DNA from: Acidobacteriota bacterium
Lineage (GTDB): Bacteria > Acidobacteriota > UBA6911 > RPQK01 > JAJDTT01
DNA length: 64,000 nucleotides
Assembly (NCBI GenBank): GCA_965263035.1
Contig: OZ253580.1
Span: 4,192,001 to 4,256,000, forward strand
Reading direction: 5' to 3'
Shown here one piece after another: positions 40,460-62,608 of this stretch. The position numbers and the translations under genes are program-made. Within the stretch, counting starts at the first letter, position 1. Each line of letters starts with the position of its first letter. Under the pieces are notes generated by a model that had not been told where the DNA came from, did no database searches, and saw only the letters and a program-made list of their open reading frames with translations.

Positions 40460-42058
40460 ATGAGAAGGCGTTCAGCGGCCTGCGGTTTGGCGGGGCTGGT
40501 GTTTTTTCTCCTGAGCGCCGTTGCTGCTGCGGGCTCTGACGAGCCGGTCGCAGTGGGGAGCGAGAAGCAACTTTTCGCTGGACCCTGGACCGAAGACGGA
40601 CGAGACGGCTATCTCGTCGACTCCATGCGCAACGTCACCATGCGGACGGGCGAGGCGATCGCCACCGGTCAGAAGGTGCCCCTTCCGGCACCCGGATTCG
40701 TGGTTCGCGACGGATCCCTCCACCGGCTCTACTACGGCGCACCAGGTGTCGAATGCGACTTCTGGGACCAGAAGCTCCACTGCAATCTCCTGCGCTACGC
40801 GGAATCGGACGACGGTGTGCACTGGAGAAAGCCTTCATTGGGCCTGGTGGAGTGGGAAGGCTCCCGCGACAACAACATCCTGTTCCCCAACGACGATTTC
40901 CCCTACGCTGTGGCCTCCGTCGGCGTCAACACCGTGTTCGTGGATCCCAACGCGTCCGGTCCCGGAGATCGGCTCAAGGCCAGCTACAAACTCACTCCGC
41001 CCCAGGAAACCGGTCCGGACAATGCAATGGAACCGCTTCCCGACGGAAAGGGGAAATACGGTTTTGTGTCCGCCGACGGTATTCACTGGAAGCGGATCAC
41101 GGGCAAGCTGGGCACCTCGGGGGACGGCGGCTTCGAACCCTTCTGGGACGGGCGCATCGGCAAGTACGTGGCCTACAGCCGGGTCAAGACTTTCGACGAC
41201 CCGCGGCAGGTGGACTACTACCATCGGGTCTACGGCAAGCGGAAAATGAACTGGAGGGCCCGGCTCCTCCGCATGGGGCGGTCGGTGTCGGACGATTTCG
41301 TTCACTGGAGTCCGGAGGAGATCGTCCTGGCCCCTGACGACGTGGACGAGGCCGATTCCGTGGCCCCGAACCGCGTCGATTTCTACAGCCTGCCCGTGAT
41401 CCAGTACACGAGCCGGGCCTACGTGGCCTTCCTCTCCATCTACAGTCATTGGAAAGCCCGGGTCAAGAAGGACGGATCGCTGAGCCAGTTCCCGGGACGG
41501 GCCGACATCCAGTTGGCCACGAGCCGCGACGGCATCCACTGGAGCCGGTCCCCGGGGCGGACCCCCTTCATTCGGCTGGGTCCCCAGGGGAGCTTCTGGG
41601 CCGGAATGCTCTTCGTCAAACGTCCGCTCCCCTCGGCGTCGGCCCCGCGCCTGGAGGTCTTCTTCGATGGTTGGCGGAAAGTCCACAACGATCCGACCCG
41701 GACGGGGCAGCCGGTGCGGGGCGTGGCCGTCACCCGGACCGACGGCTTCATCGTGGCCGAAGCCGCCTACACCGGAGGAGAATTGACCACGAAGCCGCTG
41801 GTCTTCGAGGGGAACACGCTCCAATTGAACACGGACACCAGCGCCGGGGGCATCGTGCAGGTAGAGATCCAGGACGAGTCGGGCCGGCCGGTGGAGGGAT
41901 TCAAGGCGGCCGATGCCGACGAGATCAACGGCAACTACCTGAAGGTCGCGGCCAGTTGGAACGGCCGGTCCGACGTGAGCTCGCTGGCGGGGCAACCGGT
42001 CCGCCTCCGCTTCCTCATGCGTGACGCCCGCCTCTACGCTTTCCGGTTCAGCCCCTGA
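40460..42058 (+). CDS. Secreted propeller glycoside hydrolase-like protein (same family)
   Basis: YAESDDGVHW.KP.LG, SRDGIHW, GGELTTKPL, ARLYAFRF. Confidence 0.7.
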   Translation: MRRRSAACGLAGLVFFLLSAVAAAGSDEPVAVGSEKQLFAGPWTEDGRDGYLVDSMRNVTMRTGEAIATGQKVPLPAPGFVVRDGSLHRLYYGAPGVECDFWDQKLHCNLLRYAESDDGVHWRKPSLGLVEWEGSRDNNILFPNDDFPYAVASVGVNTVFVDPNASGPGDRLKASYKLTPPQETGPDNAMEPLPDGKGKYGFVSADGIHWKRITGKLGTSGDGGFEPFWDGRIGKYVAYSRVKTFDDPRQVDYYHRVYGKRKMNWRARLLRMGRSVSDDFVHWSPEEIVLAPDDVDEADSVAPNRVDFYSLPVIQYTSRAYVAFLSIYSHWKARVKKDGSLSQFPGRADIQLATSRDGIHWSRSPGRTPFIRLGPQGSFWAGMLFVKRPLPSASAPRLEVFFDGWRKVHNDPTRTGQPVRGVAVTRTDGFIVAEAAYTGGELTTKPLVFEGNTLQLNTDTSAGGIVQVEIQDESGRPVEGFKAADADEINGNYLKVAASWNGRSDVSSLAGQPVRLRFLMRDARLYAFRFSP

Positions 42059-42084
42059 CCGTTTTGCTGGCGAATGAGAAGGGG

Positions 42085-42233
42085 CGGAGGGGCGACATCC
42101 TTGTCGCCCATTGGGAGGTGACTTTCTTGTCGCCTGCTCTTCTTTGTCGCTACCGGATGCTGCGGCCGGAAAGTGTAGAGTGGGGACTCCGTCCCCCCTG
42201 CCCCCCTGGTCGGCGACAAGAAAGTCGCCGCTC
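42085..42233. repeat. Cluster of REP-like palindromes
   Basis: GGCGACATCCTTGTCGCC, GGTGACTTTCTTGTCGCC, GTAGAGTGGGGACTCCGTCCCC, GGCGACAAGAAAGTCGCCGCTC. Confidence 0.75.
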
Positions 42234-42863
42234 GTGCGCCCGACATGGGCTGTATCTAAGGGATGAAAGATCCCAAGGGAGGTGATGGGACCAACCCTAG
42301 CCGAACCGCAAGGCGTAGCCGCGAGGTGAAGCTGAAGGAAGCGGAAGGCAAACCCACGACCGCAGGAACACGAACCGGCAGCGAGGCCGGGTGCGGGCGG
42401 TGAGCTGGCGAGCAACAGCGAAACCCGAACCCCATCCAGACGTACCAGGTAGAGTCGGGCGGCCCGGGGGGAAAGATGCAGCACCTTACTCGGGGAGATC
42501 TCAAGGGTGAGAGCCTTTGAGAAGTCAGCAGAGGTCATAGTAGCGAAGAAGCCGGATAATGCCGGTGGAGCGAAGGACCGAAGGAGTCGGACGGGCCCTA
42601 TGGTGGACTCGTCAGCGGGATCGCAAATACCTCCGAAAACGGGGCGGGGGGAGGCCCCTCGGACCCGGCATGGAAGGCCCACGGGTGGAGCCCGGCAAGC
42701 CGGAAGGGCGGAGATCAAGTCTCAGCGGCGGCGAAAACCGGAAAGAAAGGCCCTGTACGAGGCTCGAAAGAGCCTCGGGTGACTCCAACCGCCGGATACT
42801 GAAAACGGTACGTCCGGTGGTGTGGGAGGGTGCGGGGGCGCAATCCCCTGCACTCGACCCGAT
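42234..42863 (+). ncRNA. RT-less group II intron, class IIC (copy 1, 630 nt)
   Basis: 5' GTGCGCCC; GAGAAGTCAGCAGAGG domain II/III junction; short domain V CCGCCGGATAC...GTACGTCCGGTGG; domain VI ending ACCCGAT; no RT ORF. Confidence 0.9.
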
Positions 42864-42923
42864 CTCGCCTATCGTCTTGCAGCCTGTCTTGTTCCGTCAG
42901 TATCGTAGTCGGAGGAGGACGTC

Positions 42924-44786
42924 ATGCAGCAGAGGGGATTCCGCAGCAGCATCACCACCCAAGGGCGGCGCATGGCCGGGGCCCGGGCTCTCTGGAGGGC
43001 CACCGGCATGAAGACGGAGGACTTCCGGAAACCCATCATCGCCATCGCCAACTCGTTTGCCCAATTCGTCCCCGGGCACGTTCACCTGCATCCCCTCGGC
43101 CAGAGGGTCAAACAGGTCATCGACGCCAGCGGCGGGTACGGAGTGGAGTTCAACACCATCGCCCTGGACGACGGCATCGCCATGGGACACGACGGCATGC
43201 TCTACTCCCTCCCCAGCCGCGAGCTGATCGCCGACAGCGTGGAGTACATGGTGAACGGCCACAAGGCGGACGCCCTGGTCTGCATTTCCAACTGCGACAA
43301 GATCACTCCGGGAATGCTCCTGGGCGCTCTGCGGCTGAACCTGCCCACGATTTTCGTCTCGGGAGGCCCCATGGAGGCCGGCCGGGCCCTGCTGGCTTCG
43401 GGTCCGGCCAAGCTGGATCTGGTCGATTCCATGGTGGCCGCCGGAGACAGCCGGATCAGCGACGCCGAGGTCCTGAAGATGGAGGAGGAGGCCTGTCCCA
43501 CCTGCGGGTCCTGCTCGGGCATGTTCACGGCCAACAGCATGAACTGTCTCAACGAAGCCATCGGCTTGGCCCTGCCGGGCAACGGGACCATCCTCGCGAC
43601 CCACTCACTGCGCTGGCAGCTCTTCGAGCGGGCCGCCAGGCGCATCGTCCAGATGGCCCGCGCCTATTACCTGGAGGGAGACGAAACGGTGCTGCCCCGG
43701 AGCATCGCGACCTTCGAAGCCTTCGAGAACGCCATGAGTCTGGACATCGCCATGGGGGGTTCCACCAACACGGTGCTGCACATCCTGGCCATGGCGCACG
43801 AGGCGGGCGTGGAGTTCACCATGGCCGACATCGACCGCCTCTCGCGGCAGGTGCCCTGTATCTGCAAGGTGGCGCCGGCCACGGGGAAGTTTCATCTGGA
43901 GGACGTGGCCCGGGCCGGCGGGATCCCAACTATCCTGGGAGAGCTCCAGCGCGCCGGCCAGATCCACTCCGGGGTGGGAACCGTCTCCGGGGACGGCATG
44001 GGAGACATGATTCGCAAGAATGACCTTCGCGACGGCAACGGGTCGGTATCCGATTTCGCCCGCCGACGGGCGCTGGCGGCTCCCGGAGGGGTCCGCTCCC
44101 GGGAGGCGTTTTCTCAGGAGAACTATTATCAAGGGTCCGACGTCGACTCGAGGGAAGGCTGCATCCGATCGGCCGAGCACGCCTATTCCCAGGATGGAGG
44201 GCTGGCCGTCCTGTACGGCAATCTGGCCGAGGACGGTTGCATAGTGAAGACGGCAGGGGTGGACGAGTCGATCTGGGTCTTCCAGGGGCCGGCCCGGGTC
44301 TTCGAGTCCCAGGAGGAAGCCTGCGACGGGATCCTGGGCGGACGGGTCGAGGCCGGTGACGTGGTGGTGATCCGGTACGAGGGGCCCAAAGGCGGTCCGG
44401 GAATGCAGGAGATGCTCTATCCGACCTCCTACATCAAGGCCCGGCAGTTGGGCGCCAAATGCGCGCTGCTGACGGACGGCCGTTTCAGCGGCGGAACCAG
44501 CGGATTGTCCATCGGCCACGTCTCTCCCGAAGCGGCTGAGGGTGGGGCCATCGCGCTGGTGGAAGAGGGAGACCTCATCCGCGTCCACATTCCCGAACGG
44601 ACGCTGGAATTGGCGGTCCCCGAGGAGGAGTTGGCGCGCCGCCGCCGTCGCATGGAGGCTCGCGGTCAGGAAGCCTACCGTCCGCGCGACCGTCACCGTC
44701 CCATCTCCCAGGCCCTGGCCGCCTACGCCGCCCTGACCACCAGCGCCGCTCGGGGCGCCGTCCGTGACATCTCCCAGCTCCGATGA
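42924..44786 (+). CDS. ilvD: Dihydroxy-acid dehydratase
   Basis: [75 protein letters not shown]. Confidence 0.97.
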
Positions 44787-52003: not shown

Positions 52004-52063
52004 TGTAGAGTGGGGACTCCGTCCCCCCTGCCCCCCTAACCGGCGACAAGAAAGTCGCCGCTC
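52004..52063. repeat. REP-like doublet (5' exon of intron copy 2)
   Basis: Matches 42174-42233 except for 3 nt. Confidence 0.8.
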
Positions 52064-52693
52064 GTGCGCCCGACATGGGCTGTATCTAAGGGATGAAAGA
52101 TCCCAAGGGAGGTGATGGGACCAACGCTAGCCGAACCGCAAGGCGTAGCCGCGAGGCGAAGCTGAAGGAAGCGGAAGGCAAACCCACGACCGCAGGAACA
52201 CGAACCGGCAGTGAGGCCGGGTGCGGGCGGTGAGCTGGCGAGCAACAGCGAAACCCGAACCCCATCCAGACGCATCAGGTAGAGCCGGGCGGCCCGGGGG
52301 GAAAGATGCAGCACCTTACTCGGGGAGATCTCAAGGGTGAGAGCCCTTGAGAAGTCAGCAGAGGTCGTAGTAGCGAAGAAGCTGGGTAATGCCGGTGGAG
52401 CGAAGGACCGAAGGAGTCGGACTGGCCCTATGGTGGACTCGTCAGCGGGATCGCAACTACCTCCGAAAACGGGCCGTGGGGAGGCCCCTCGGACCCGGCA
52501 TGGAAGGCCCACGGGTGGAGCCCGGCAAGCCGGAAGGGCGGAGATCAAGTCTCAGCGGCGGCGGAAACCGGAAAGAAAGGCCCTGTACGAGGCTCGAAAG
52601 AGCCTCGGGTGACTCCAACCGCCGGATACTGAAAACGGTACGTCCGGTGGTGTGGGAGGGTGCGGGGGCGCAATCCCCTGCACTCGACCCGAT
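52064..52693 (+). ncRNA. RT-less group II intron, class IIC (copy 2, 630 nt)
   Basis: Same length and boundaries as copy 1; roughly 15-17 substitutions by eye, no indels. Confidence 0.9.
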
Positions 52694-52701
52694 CACCCCC
52701 T

Positions 52702-52729
52702 AACCGGCGACAGGAACGTCGCCGCTCCA
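52702..52729. repeat. REP-like palindrome
   Basis: CCGGCGACAGGAACGTCGCCGCTCCA. Confidence 0.65.
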
Positions 52730-58813: not shown

Positions 58814-60030
58814 TTGAGTACGGGCAGTAGCAGAATCGAGAGTGCTTCGCTACGACTCGCGCGGTACTTGAAGGAGTTCGTTGGCCTCCGCAGTACGACT
58901 GTTCGTGATGTCGACAAGTACGATTCCGTGCTCTGGTTCGACGAGATGCCGCAAACGGCGGACTGCCACAGTGGTGCCTGGACCGACGACTACGATCTGG
59001 CAAAGCCTTGGCTCGAGGTTCGCAAGCAAAAGTTCGAGAACCCGCCAGAGCCACCCGACATCACCGTGAAATGGATCGACGCCGAGGCTCTCTACAAGGC
59101 GACGCCGAGTATTACGCCACTACGTCCGAGCATCTTGGAGGAAGACACGGACATCGATCTGGGGGAGGGCGAGACACCGCCGCTCGTCGAGCGACCACTG
59201 GTGGACTACCCGGAAGTTGTCGAGGCGTATCGGGCCTTTCGGCCGAAGTGGGAGGCGTGGGCGGCAGAACATCGCCGTCGTGAGGCGGTGCAGCATCTCT
59301 ATGCTGAACTCTTCAGGCTTTATTCGCAGTTGCAGAAGCAGAGCGAGATCGTCGAGGTCGTCCTCGGGCTTGGCCTGATGGACTGGCGGGCTACGAACGG
59401 TGTTAGGTCGATTCGGATTCGCCGCCACGCGGTGGCTGGGCAGGTCGAGTTGACCTTTGATCCGGGTAGCGGTGTCATTCGCGTAGGCGCCCCCGGTGAG
59501 GGGACGAACCTGCGAGTCGAAGATGACATGCTCGAGGCCGAACTCCGACCTGATCGATCATGCTATGACGCGGTCGAAGCGCAGCTTGACGAGGTGGGTG
59601 ACGCGATCTGGGACAAGTCGCTCATTCATGCTCCGCTAAAGACCTGGGCGGGGGCACTCAGCCCCGACACGGAGTGGTCGGAGGGACTCGGTGCCAAGCA
59701 GTCAACTGGCAATGACCCTGTCGTGAGCTTTGCGCCGGCCCTGATCCTTCGCAAGCGCCTCCAGACTGGCATGGTCCGTATCTACGAGAAACTGATTCAG
59801 AACCTTGAGGACGAATCCGGCGAAGTGCCTCGCGGTTGGGGCGAGCTGACTGATGACGACTGGGGAAATGGAGGTGGGAAGGCTACCGGGCACGATGGCC
59901 GAGATGTGACGCCTGCTGGCGGCACGCCGTCACTGTCAGAAATATACTTCCCGTTGTTAGCTAACCGGGAGCAGCGGCGTATCGTCAATGCAATCGACGA
60001 CAATCAGGGAGTGCTGGTTCAGGGTCCACC
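58814..60030 (+). pseudogene. SF1 (Upf1/DNA2-like AAA) helicase, 5' part, interrupted
   Basis: YFPLLANREQRRIV..GVLVQGPP breaks mid Walker A. Confidence 0.85.
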
Positions 60031-60058
60031 CGATCCGGTGACATACTGCACCACCTTT

Positions 60059-62143
60059 CTACATCGTTGATGTCATGAGACTTAACTGTGACGCGTTGGT
60101 ACCTCGCGGAACTCTTCTGCCGCTTCGAATGGCCTCGGCGGCTCGTTGGACTGCTTCAGATCCCAAGTCCGAGTGCCGAATCTGCCAGGGGGCCGTGGCC
60201 ACCACCTGCCGTGCTGGCAGGAGTTTGCGGGCAACCAGCTTGCGTACGGAACTGGGGCTGATTCCCAGTTGCGAAGCCGCTTCTTGCATGTTGCAGAATT
60301 CGTGAGGGCGTTGCGAGAAGGCTGGGATGCGCCGATAGTTGCGCAAGCTGCGAACACGAGTCTTGTTCCAGCTGTGCCCTCGTCCCGTCTTCTTGCCCAT
60401 TCGGTTCAGGATCCGGGCAATCTGATCGTCACTCACCTGCCGGGCCAACTGGCGAACCAACTTCACCACGTCCTCCTCGGTGCGGTAGCGATGGCGACCG
60501 GTGGCGTTCTTTCGTACCTGCAGCCGCGTGTGTTTGCCCCCGCGCCAGCGGATGATCAACTCCACCTCCCGCCTACCCTGATCCACGCTCGCAATGATCT
60601 CTTCAATCAACGTGCGTGCGATCCGCTTCTTGATCCGATTGTCGGTGACGGCATCGGACCAGAGCGCTGGAAACCGCTCGGCTAGCCGGAGCAGTTCCAC
60701 TCGCTGCGGTCCCGGCGAACTCGACCGCTTCTGCCCGATCTGCTCCAGACGGGACTGCACTTGGCGCACACTGTTCAGGGCTTCGTTCCACTTCCGCTCC
60801 AGCGTCGAGGCTACCAGCCGGTTCTCCGGGTCGACTGCATCGTACTGTCGCTCAGCCCGTCTTGCCTGGTAGCGCAACTGCTCGAGTTCGCGCTCCAGGA
60901 GTTCTCGTTTCAACTGGTCTCGCTCGGTGGCTTCCTCTTGCACTCGCAGAGCCGCCTCGATCGCGCCTGGGGAAACCACTCGCACGATCTCGCGCCCCAC
61001 GGCTTGGTCGACCCTGCGTCCGCCAAACGAGATGCAACCCGCGACGCCGTGGTTGATCCGCGCCCCTCGGCAATGGTAGCGGGGGACTCGTCCCCCAACT
61101 CCACTGTAGGCCACGTGCAGCCGGCGACCGCAGTGCCCACACAGCAGCAGACCCGCCAGCAAACTCTTTCCCGAACGAACGGCTCCCTTCGCCATTTTGC
61201 CTCGCATCTGTGCGTTGTCGGCCAAGAGGCGTTGATTCGCTTCAAAGCTCGTCCAGTCGATGTAGCCCGGGTGATGCTCCTTGAGCCAGACCGTCCACTG
61301 TTCCGGGTGGGCCCGGGACCGAATCCGTTTGCGAGCTTGACCGTCCTTCAAGTAGGTCTCGGTCCAGGTGCGCCCCCAAGCATAGGCCCCCGCGTACAGG
61401 GGGTTCTTCAAGACCCTCAGCACGCTGCTGTAGACGGGCCGCTTCCACACCGTCTCCCAACCCCAAGCGGTGTGTCGTCTCACGGGCAACCGGATCCCTT
61501 CCTGCCGATACCACAGAAGAGTCTGCCGGGCACTGCCCGTCTCGGAGAATTTAGCAAACACCCCCTGAATGCTTTCCTGCACCCGGCGGTCCGGATCCTT
61601 CTCCAAACATCCGTTCGGGTTCAGAACGAACCCCACTGGCAATGAGGTGTACAGTTCTCCGCGAGCCGCTTTGCTGAGCAGTCCCTGTTGGGCACGCTGC
61701 CGGAGCAGGCTCAACTCTGCCTCGCTCATCGTTCCCTTCAACCCGAGAAGCAGTCGGTCGTTGCTGAGACGCGGATCGTACACGGCCTCGCTGTCGACGA
61801 TCAGGGTCCGCGTCAGCGAGCACAGGTCCAGCAATCGGTACCAGTCGGCATTGTTGCGAGCCAGTCGAGAGGCATCCAGACTGAAGATGGCCCCGCACCG
61901 TCCCAGGCTGACCTCGGCGGACAAGCGTTGAAAGCCCACCCGATCGACCGTAGTGGCCCCCGAACGCCCCTGATCCTCGTCGATCACCTCGACTTGGTTC
62001 CATCCGAGTTCTTCGGCTTTGGCCGCCAGCCGGTATTGCACCCGGCCACTCTCCTGGTGGTAACGAACCTGCCGCAGGCTCGACTGGCGCACGTAGACGT
62101 AGGCTTGGCGTCTCAGGTGATCCTCAGTGATCTTTCCTCTCAT
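60059..62143 (-). CDS. Large serine recombinase (resolvase, recombinase, zinc ribbon, coiled coil, C-terminal HTH)
   Basis: AYVYVRQSS catalytic motif, DEDQGRSG, ASRLARN, LKNPLYAGAY, LLCGHCGRRL, AVDPENRLVA, C-terminal MQEAASQLGIS HTH. Confidence 0.93.
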   Translation of the reverse strand: MRGKITEDHLRRQAYVYVRQSSLRQVRYHQESGRVQYRLAAKAEELGWNQVEVIDEDQGRSGATTVDRVGFQRLSAEVSLGRCGAIFSLDASRLARNNADWYRLLDLCSLTRTLIVDSEAVYDPRLSNDRLLLGLKGTMSEAELSLLRQRAQQGLLSKAARGELYTSLPVGFVLNPNGCLEKDPDRRVQESIQGVFAKFSETGSARQTLLWYRQEGIRLPVRRHTAWGWETVWKRPVYSSVLRVLKNPLYAGAYAWGRTWTETYLKDGQARKRIRSRAHPEQWTVWLKEHHPGYIDWTSFEANQRLLADNAQMRGKMAKGAVRSGKSLLAGLLLCGHCGRRLHVAYSGVGGRVPRYHCRGARINHGVAGCISFGGRRVDQAVGREIVRVVSPGAIEAALRVQEEATERDQLKRELLERELEQLRYQARRAERQYDAVDPENRLVASTLERKWNEALNSVRQVQSRLEQIGQKRSSSPGPQRVELLRLAERFPALWSDAVTDNRIKKRIARTLIEEIIASVDQGRREVELIIRWRGGKHTRLQVRKNATGRHRYRTEEDVVKLVRQLARQVSDDQIARILNRMGKKTGRGHSWNKTRVRSLRNYRRIPAFSQRPHEFCNMQEAASQLGISPSSVRKLVARKLLPARQVVATAPWQIRHSDLGSEAVQRAAEAIRSGRRVPRGTNASQLSLMTSTM

Positions 62144-62282
62144 CGGCGTCCTCCTTTTGCCCTCGCCAAGCCTGCTCCAGCAGCTGAGCCATCAGCCGCA
62201 GCAGTTGCTTCCTGGTCGAAGGGGGTAGCTGGTCCCACTCGGGCTGGTTGGGGGTTGCAAACGCGAACTCCTTTTGCTTCAT
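62124..62282 (-). CDS. 52-aa small helical protein upstream of the recombinase (not in ORF track)
   Basis: GGAGG RBS; MKQKEFAFATPNQPEWDQLPPSTRKQLLRLMAQLLEQAWRGQKEDADERKDH; overlaps the recombinase start. Confidence 0.6.
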   Translation of the reverse strand: MKQKEFAFATPNQPEWDQLPPSTRKQLLRLMAQLLEQAWRGQKEDADERKDH

Positions 62283-62608
62283 GCCGTCCTCCGGGGGCAA
62301 CGTTGCCCCGGGTGGTCTGACAATCCGACTTCGACCCGAACGTCTCGATCAGGTCCAGAAGTTCTTGCAAGGCGCCGACGCTGCATCGCGGCTGGTCGTC
62401 GACCCGACCCACTGCCGCAGCTTCGGGCCGGCACATCCAGCGTGGGATCTTCGCGTGAGTACTGTCCGGTAGCCGGCAGGTGAACCACTCCCCACACTGG
62501 CCGTGACGAGGAGGCTCGGCCAGTTCAAGGTCTCGTCCGGCTAAGGGGTGAAAGGGGTAATGGATTCTAACGGAGGTCGCAATGTGAGCATTGTGTCGTG
62601 GGTTCGCC
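62140..62608 (-). CDS. Y4bD/DUF5372-like accessory ORF lacking its start in the integrated state
   Basis: Frame open to the element boundary: ANPRHNAHIATSVRIHYPFHPLAGRDLEL...IPRWMC; no ATG/GTG/TTG upstream of the YPFHPL motif inside this end. Confidence 0.7.

Follow-up and report, generated by a model that had tools for sequence, protein, structure and literature searches.

The window analysed here is a stretch of 64,000 nucleotides (G000:C1:4192001-4256000) from the genome of an Acidobacteriota bacterium (G000, a single contig of 6.2 Mb with 62% G+C), and it carries two copies of a group IIC intron without an open reading frame (ORF). Our favoured explanation, to which we assign a probability of roughly 80%, is that these copies belong to a non-autonomous ORF-less intron that lost its reverse transcriptase (RT) once, spread to 22 copies in the genome, is mobilised in trans by RT-encoding parents and lands after hairpins resembling repetitive extragenic palindromes (REPs). 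What is new is the application of the known IIC hairpin targeting to a REP-like family, with non-autonomous copies exceeding the parents 11:1.

The features of the two copies and of their target sites are as follows, in window coordinates.

42234..42863, plus strand: copy 1, ORF-less group IIC intron, 630 nt (Rfam RF02001, RF01998, RF00029)
52064..52693, plus strand: copy 2, ORF-less group IIC intron, 630 nt, 97.6% identical to copy 1
42211..42230, plus strand: target hairpin of copy 1, REP-like family A, with a 7-bp stem CGGCGAC/GTCGCCG and the loop AAGAAA
42230..42233, plus strand: intron-binding site 1 (IBS1), GCTC, with which the 5' exon ends; its first G doubles as the final stem base
42410..42413, plus strand: exon-binding site 1 (EBS1), GAGC, in the loop of the domain 1 (D1) stem-loop 42404-42419 (GCTG-GCGAGCAA-CAGC)
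about 42579-42786, plus strand: domain 4 (D4), from the Rfam matches and the consensus fold
42759..42776, plus strand: tip of D4, GAGGCTC-GAAA-GAGCCTC, a GAAA-capped hairpin at the former position of the RT ORF, from the alignment to the parents; the consensus D4 fold closes here
42789..42820, plus strand: domain 5 (D5), 32 nt, with a 2-nt bulge and CGC instead of the usual AGC triad (RF00029 alignment)
42821..42863, plus strand: domain 6 (D6) and the 3' end, ..GACCCGAT (RF00029 alignment)
42864..42864, plus strand: IBS3, C, the first base of the 3' exon
52041..52063, plus strand: target hairpin and IBS1 of copy 2, equal in sequence to those of copy 1
52705..52728, plus strand: empty target site right after copy 2, CGGCGAC-AGGAAC-GTCGCCG followed by CTC and C

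Both introns start with GTGCG (at 42234 and 52064) and end with ...CCGAT (at 42863 and 52693). They lie directly 3' of GGCGACAAGAAAGTCGCC-GCTC, and the base after each of them is a C. A first-pass annotation, made from the letters alone, had placed two 630-nt copies at the same insertion position, and its coordinates are exact. For copies 1 and 2, respectively, the scores are 81.4 and 84.7 bits with RF02001 (group-II-D1D4-3, gathering threshold 32) and 47.2 and 43.6 bits with RF01998 (group-II-D1D4-1, gathering threshold 35). RF00029 (Intron_gpII, D5-D6) matches 42787-42863 in a permissive scan with 38.9 bits (E 5.5e-6), 1.1 below its gathering threshold of 40. Ribozymes of class IIC are small, with about 400-450 nt outside D4, and a total of 630 nt with D4 at about 42579-42786 agrees with this. 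The D5 sequence is the same in 18 of the 19 intact ORF-less copies of the genome, and the unpaired A at 42857 in D6, seven bases from the 3' end, is a candidate branch site. With RF02001 and RF01998 above gathering and an IIC-like RT in the parents (see below), the element is a genuine ORF-less group IIC intron family, as had been proposed.

Contigs from four public runs were placed on 41700-43400. One contig from RNA run X16 connects 42233 to 42864 exactly, skipping 630 bases with GT..AT ends; it has 33 letters on its short side and a depth of 10.1. The organism behind this contig differs from the window by a few single-nucleotide polymorphisms and a 26-nt deletion, i.e. it is a related strain. 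The contig is either spliced RNA or the unoccupied DNA site of a sister strain; both readings confirm the intron boundaries, and neither of them demonstrates splicing. Compared with the flanks, the depth of the intron contigs is about 21-23x in X1 and about 46-150x in the RNA runs X15 and X16, and contig depth was not used as evidence, since it can neither rank parts nor indicate expression.

A BLAST search with copy 1 against G000 gave 30 segments, which make up 24 copies and one 51-nt fragment. Intact ORF-less introns of 630-632 nt account for 19 of the 24 copies. Three more are ORF-less and split by insertion sequences (ISs), two by a 1782-nt IS and one by a 4.7-kb insert. The first-pass annotation had called for a search for an RT-encoding parent elsewhere in the genome, and two intact copies turned up (positions in G000):

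529488-531335: full-length parent, 1848 nt
2572796-2574643: full-length parent, 1848 nt, differing from the other at 6 of 1848 bases

The ratio of ORF-less copies to parents is 22:2, and an annotation by RT-based intron search would recover only 2 of the 24 copies in G000. Each parent encodes an intact RT of 409 amino acids with RVT_1 and GIIM domains by Pfam, without an endonuclease (En) domain, and with a score of 363 bits on TIGR04416. The best solved relatives are the GsI-IIC RT 6ar1 (1.6e-133), followed by the IIC RTs 7uim, 5hhl and 5hhj, while the match to LtrA reaches only 8.5e-35. Judged from the best structure matches and Pfam, the parent RT most probably belongs to the class C clade and is En-less.

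All 22 short copies align to the parents at ORF-less positions 1-528 and 540-630, i.e. they have one common deletion junction. The deletion took the RT frame from about the start codon to just before the stop. Because the junction is the same in all 22 copies, we conclude that the ORF was lost once and that the short form then spread. G000 contains a second group II family with the ribozyme RF02003 and four RT-bearing copies (at about 983763, 5056630, 5538413 and 5842998), and no group II families in G000 other than these two. The RF02003 family is an unlikely RT donor, given its different ribozyme type and an RT that is 34% identical to the IIC RT.

A hairpin followed by GCTC precedes all 24 copies, and the base at +1 is a C in 23 of them. 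As the first-pass annotation had it, the hairpin 5' of the intron is one of a dispersed family: when up to two substitutions are allowed, GGCGRCAAGAAAGYCGCC is found 274 times in the genome, in 134 clusters. REP-like hairpin families precede 23 of the 24 copies, mostly GGCGRC-AAGAAA-GYCGCC (family A) and for the rest GGCGGCTGGAAACCGCC, GGGGGTTGNAAACCCCC or GGGGACAAGGATGTCCCC. The sole non-repeat target is that of the copy at G000:C1:436206-436835, which follows GGCCATC-AGGTC-GATGGCC. In-silico removal of this intron yields a frame of 365 codons on the opposite strand, zinc alcohol dehydrogenase-like, with a G+C fraction of 0.81 at third codon positions and the break at about codon 317. The restored frame means that the intron disrupted a gene here, in antisense.

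Unrelated hairpins also precede two of the ten relatives whose 5' exon was read (L036, L014). Beyond the genus, the RT has its nearest relatives (61-72% identity) in metagenome bins with the labels Acidobacteriota, Bryobacterales and Verrucomicrobiaceae; these introns, too, stand after GC-rich hairpins and GCTC, GCTA or GCCA, but the hairpins are unrelated. Since copies are found after unrelated hairpins, recognition follows the generic IIC rule of a hairpin, a 4-nt IBS1 and IBS3. The introns land mainly, though not solely, in the REP-like hairpin family. The idea that REPs serve as the target therefore holds for 23 of 24 copies and fails as an exclusive rule (436206, L036, L014). Copies after unrelated hairpins had been named as an observation that would speak against it; one such copy in G000 and two of ten relatives were found.

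G000 has 344 empty and 22 filled sites that consist of a perfect hairpin (6 bp or longer) and GCTCC. Of the family-A sites overall, 16 of 84 are filled, compared with 3 of 185 for other sites with a hairpin and GCTCC. Between genes and in the permissive orientation, the fractions are 12 of 28 for family A, 0 of 22 for family B (p 4e-4) and 3 of 26 for other hairpins. Family B is GCGRTT-GGA-AAYCGC, with the same GCTCC tail as family A. Site choice seems to depend on more than a hairpin and GCTCC, and our guess is that loop size or stem length might be the extra determinant.

In the first-pass annotation, the GAGC loop at 42404-42419, complementary to the exon end GCTC, had been assigned the role of EBS1. 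Two comparisons confirm the assignment. In introns of congeners, the exon end CCTC goes with the loop GCGAGGAA (GAGG) in L010, L011, L012, L027 and L036, and the exon end GCTC goes with the loop GCGAGCAA (GAGC) in L013, L028, L014 and the G000 copies. The exon and the loop match in 11 of 11 sequences, from two ribozyme subfamilies, and the exon end varies within each subfamily. On these alignments the pattern is one of compensatory change, with at least two independent switches between GAGC and GAGG. This set leaves out the more distant relatives L015, L016, L018 and L031, which are truncated or unalignable, and L029 and L037, where the contig ends before the EBS1 loop.

For a wider test, a covariance model of intron positions 1-195 was run over 80 loci encoding RT relatives. 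It gave 74 matches, 69 of them with at least 30 nt of exon; one had no alignable loop, and the set contained 65 unique introns. We kept 45 of these and set aside 20 in which the model start was not on a G[TC][GA][TC]G 5' end, i.e. the splice site was misplaced. The 45 IIC introns have 25 different IBS1 words; when their exon bases -1 to -4 are set against loop bases 3 to 6, 158 of the 180 cells are paired. With shuffled loops the number is 92.7 +/- 5.5 and none of 2000 shuffles reaches 158, and when the register is shifted by one or two bases the pairing falls to 34-48%. For all 65 introns, 182 of 260 cells are paired, again reached by none of 2000 shuffles. The compensatory change among congeners and the pairing over 45 introns together identify the GAGC loop as EBS1. 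The idea that EBS1 follows the commonest repeat flank of each species is unsupported: G003 has 62 exact repeats of the GCTC type and 29 of the CCTC type, yet its introns have GAGG. EBS3 could not be mapped, because the +1 base is C in every relative whose exon was read.

We then consider whether the short form itself is mobile. The bases right after the intron differ at every copy, and the far upstream flanks differ too. Five ORF-less copies are 100% identical and stand after different hairpin variants, and there is one further identical pair. The pairwise identity of the 19 intact short copies has a median of 97.9% (range 95.1-100%), and the variable sites cluster in D4, with 18 over alignment columns 351-490 compared with about 4 per 70 columns in the core. 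The cumulative GC skew places the origin at around 2.85 Mb and the terminus at around 5.8 Mb; 20 of the 24 copies are then co-oriented with the leading strand (p 0.0015). In family A, co-orientation with the leading strand is found at 16 of 19 occupied sites versus 40 of 115 empty ones (Fisher 7e-5). A bias for the lagging-strand template is described for class C introns in the pertinent section of PMC8919778. The strand bias and the five identical copies point to recent retromobility, and the ORF-less form appears to have moved recently.

Three congeners also have ORF-less forms, and the four species, including G000, show four different D4 tips. In G003 the ORF-less form still has four codons from the start of the RT frame and eight from its end. 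Since the tips differ among species, the loss of the ORF is recurrent in the genus.

The repeat that receives most of the introns was characterised as well. The paired stem variants of family A, GGCGAC..GTCGCC (87) and GGCGGC..GCCGCC (69), far exceed the mixed forms (8 and 6), which shows that base pairing is maintained. GCTC comes after the repeat 135 times, with 115 empty sites of the form GCTCC and 20 of the form GCTCG, and CCTC comes after it 48 times. A crude gene calling (4410 frames over 85% of the genome) places 217 of the 274 copies between genes, and convergent gaps are enriched among them (78 of 217, compared with 866 of 4400 background gene pairs). Units of family A also occur head to tail with a period of about 28 nt, in arrays of up to five units in G000 and in longer ones in G003; an example is found at G000:C1:2539988-2540070. 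Both orientations are present within 52 of the 134 clusters.

Upstream of copy 1, as often elsewhere in the genome, the family-A hairpin is the right part of a composite repeat of about 150 nt (window 42090-42233). It begins with a family-A hairpin in reverse orientation, which has a tail rich in T, and continues with a spacer that is conserved (..GTTGCTATGCGATTCGGTGGCCGGAAAGT), a module that we call H1, CCTGCCCCCCT and the forward family-A hairpin. In its organisation it resembles a MITE (miniature inverted-repeat transposable element) or a bacterial interspersed mosaic element. Two of its parts are given here in window coordinates.

42117..42134, plus strand: reverse family-A hairpin (GGTGACTTTCTTGTCGCC), left end of the composite upstream of copy 1, in the orientation not used by the intron
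42175..42196, plus strand: H1 module, GTAGAGT and the hairpin GGGGAC-TCC-GTCCCC, outside the intron

The H1 pattern with up to three substitutions has 131 copies in the genome; 60 of them have a family-A hairpin within 45 nt downstream and 70 have a reverse family-A hairpin within 70 nt upstream. For the composite there is no Rfam match in a scan of 42100-42950, from which just its first 10 bases are missing. The similarity between copies 1 and 2 continues for about 60 nt upstream of the intron because the target hairpin belongs to the composite repeat; the intron does not begin earlier. The repeat is also present in congeners, for example with 27 exact copies in G002, a genome in which no intron match was found. 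The repeat is thus independent of the intron, and we reject the idea that the intron makes it.

According to the part of PMC3733652 that deals with their structure, REP elements have a conserved GTAG (or CGTC) tag beside the palindrome. In family A neither GTAG nor GTGG is conserved as a tag, and the GCTCC flank is followed by variable bases. The commonest continuations after the 115 empty GCTCC sites are CAG (14), CAT (12) and CGC (10); those that would give GTGG (AC...) are ACC (4) and ACG (3), among the twelve commonest listed. The GTGG that had been read on the minus strand of the rejoined exons of copy 2 is correct for that copy and is not a feature of the family. The neighbouring H1 module does have GTAGAG. 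In being a high-copy and mainly extragenic palindrome, family A does behave as REPs do. The genome contains two genes that resemble REP-associated tyrosine transposases (RAYTs).

G000:C1:2482811-2483487 (L002 1390-2064): RAYT-like Y1 gene, Y1_Tnp match
G000:C1:3477778-3478464 (L001 1144-1830): RAYT-like Y1 gene, Y1_Tnp match

One of the two is frameshifted, and the other, of 224 amino acids, scores 73.9 bits against an NCBIfam cut-off of 80. No copies of family A or H1 flank either gene; the nearest are about 700 nt away and on one side only, and the nearby inverted repeats are unrelated. A RAYT beside the repeat, for which a search had been suggested, was thus not found, and we reject the Y1 genes as its transposase on the present evidence. 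Without a tag and without a cognate flanking RAYT, "REP-like" is a fair description of family A, while its membership among RAYT-served REPs is not supported.

The history and mechanism that we favour are as follows. One deletion took the RT frame out of D4 and left the GAAA-capped stem, after which the 630-nt ribozyme multiplied to 22 copies. The RT/maturase from the two 1848-nt parents would bind the ORF-less RNA in trans, and the resulting ribonucleoprotein (RNP) would reverse-splice into single-stranded DNA of the lagging-strand template, where the RNA would then be copied into DNA. The target itself is shown by the data: a DNA hairpin, followed directly by GCTC that pairs with the EBS1 GAGC in D1, and then C. 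The REP-like family GGCGRC-AAGAAA-GYCGCC of the genus, with its conserved GCTCC flank, provides most of the target sites, mainly between genes. Mobilisation in trans by the two resident parents is probable, as far as it can be inferred from the sequences.

Several points weigh against this explanation. An action of the parent RT on the short RNA is something we infer. The 5' arm of D4 (intron about 346-528, window 42579-42761) is the expected binding place of IIC RTs, and here the short copies are only 71-89% identical to the G000 parents, compared with 93-100% in D1-D3. With regard to recognition in trans by the parent RT, it is this divergence that leaves the most room for doubt. The arm of the G000 short form is nearer to that of the short form of G001, and the G000 form may thus have arisen as a mosaic or by recombination. 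The exon-joined X16 contig, from a related strain, could represent unoccupied DNA instead of spliced RNA. GC skew was the sole basis for placing the origin and terminus, and a shift of either by 0.3 Mb gives 19 of 24 co-oriented copies. Finally, the counts of intergenic sites use crude gene calls, which missed the disrupted gene at 436206.

We compared the favoured explanation with three others. The intron could spread at the DNA level, hitch-hiking in the composite REP element by recombination or with a Y1 transposase, and retromobility of the ORF-less form would then be unneeded. The roughly 60 nt of upstream flank (H1, spacer and hairpin) common to many copies would fit this, as would the two RAYT-like genes. 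However, the sequence changes immediately past the last intron base at each copy, the far upstream flanks differ, and the composite repeat is common without the intron. Copies also follow other hairpins, one of them inside a coding frame without a REP, and the RAYT-like genes have no flanking repeat. As for replication strand, the copies show the bias of En-less introns, which runs against the orientation of the empty repeats. We therefore consider spread at the DNA level highly improbable. The ORF-less copies could instead be dead relics of an old burst, neither moving nor splicing. Identities down to 95.1%, the three copies broken by ISs, one copy with a GTACG 5' end and a T at +1, and alterations of the EBS1 stem-loop in two copies and of D5 in one are what relics would show. 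This explanation is hard to reconcile with five identical copies at separate loci after different hairpin variants, with two intact parents that differ at just 6 of 1848 bases, and with a ribozyme core that is conserved relative to D4, and we find it improbable.

The last alternative is that nothing was retargeted and that the hairpins are repeated terminators without a U tract (I-shaped), to which the intron responds as any IIC intron would. Insertion of IIC introns after terminator hairpins is known, and terminators without a U tract are included in the account of PMC8919778, as far as its relevant section goes. The enrichment of the repeats in convergent gaps (78 of 217 versus 866 of 4400) would fit, and the reverse orientation with the T-rich tail (42117..42134) is called terminator-like by a simple scan. 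In the orientation used by the intron, however, there is no T run and the simple terminator scan makes no call, and upstream gene and intron point in the same direction at 12 of 23 sites only (p 1.0). The units form head-to-tail arrays of up to five, and 52 of 134 clusters have both orientations. A loop and flank conserved over 274 copies are the behaviour of a repeat, unlike that of independent terminators. Moreover, at least four T among the last six exon bases are found in 26 of 45 other IIC introns, and this lineage has 1. Taken together this makes the terminator explanation unlikely.

The non-autonomous, REP-landing intron that we favour can be compared with known systems. Bacterial group II introns have three target specificities, i.e. 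homing sites, terminators and attC, according to the overview in PMC4424553, whose passage on ORF-less bacterial introns describes them as rare, short-lived and usually found beside relatives whose protein may act in trans. The terminator-targeting IIC introns of the B.h.I1 type (Robart, Seo and Zimmerly 2007), as outlined in the same source (PMC4424553), share with the present family an En-less IIC RT, a small ribozyme, insertion after a hairpin, a 4-nt IBS1, a 1-nt IBS3 and the bias for the lagging-strand template. What sets the present family apart from the B.h.I1 type is that its hairpin is a dispersed, conserved repeat whose tail (GCTC) is GC-rich and lacks a U tract, that this hairpin is used regardless of the direction of the upstream gene, and that the RT gene is missing from nearly all copies. 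The IIC-attC introns of the S.ma.I2 type likewise use a DNA site that is repeated and structured but not a terminator, following the relevant parts of PMC4424553 and PMC3001079. However, attC sites are integron sites with bulged stems that are recognised on the bottom strand, whereas the present intron uses a REP-like hairpin with a perfect stem of 7 bp and without integron context.

Mohr and co-workers reportedly described in 2010 how group II introns lacking an ORF are mobilised in trans in Thermosynechococcus elongatus, for introns of the CL/IIB type with long homing sites. In that organism, as here, ORF-less derivatives proliferate beside RT-encoding relatives. The differences are that the present intron is of class C, targets hairpins and has 22 ORF-less copies compared with two parents. 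An abundant extragenic palindrome is also the landing site of ISPpu9, ISPpu10, ISPa11 and IS1397, according to the part of PMC1525189 that covers them, but those elements are DNA transposons. In the literature searched, the only association of a group II intron with REPs is that in Pseudomonas putida KT2440, where the relevant part of PMC1525189 reports it for 2 of 9 copies, compared with 23 of 24 here.

A broader reading, which we offer tentatively and hold to be somewhat less probable than an even chance, is that the IIC lineage and the REP-like family form a lasting pair in the genus. In such a pair the intron would read more than just a hairpin, as it fills family A (7-bp stem, 6-nt loop) and none of the 22 family-B sites in the same orientation and with the same GCTCC tail, EBS1 would have switched between GAGC and GAGG at least twice to match the GCTC and CCTC flank variants, the RT would be shed repeatedly, and a MITE-like short form could outnumber its parents 11:1. 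If this is true, REP-type repeats are a third natural class of IIC targets beside terminators and attC, and in this family nature provides a bacterial group II ribozyme that is stably mobilised in trans. The family offers a natural system for the trans-mobilisation of a minimal 630-nt IIC ribozyme, and a test bed for how an IIC RNP reads DNA hairpins, with one repeat family filled and another not. It also shows a selfish element that exploits a second one as its landing pad, for the most part without harm, apart from the copy that splits the dehydrogenase-like gene.

The 1782-nt IS that interrupts two of the ORF-less introns has about ten copies in the genome, with 98-100% identity. The two insertions are at different intron positions.

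G000:C1:3067891-3069672: 1782-nt IS inside an ORF-less intron
G000:C1:3923464-3925242: 1782-nt IS inside a second ORF-less intron

A 2.6-kb repeated element has a copy in the window (60022-62608, minus strand; 99.9% identical) and is also present within the broken intron at G000 5180457-5185638.

The end of copy 1 lies 60 nt 5' of the start codon (interval 42864-42924) of a same-strand gene for a 620-amino-acid dehydratase of the ILVD_EDD family. If this gene is transcribed from 5' of the repeat, its leader needs the intron to be spliced out.

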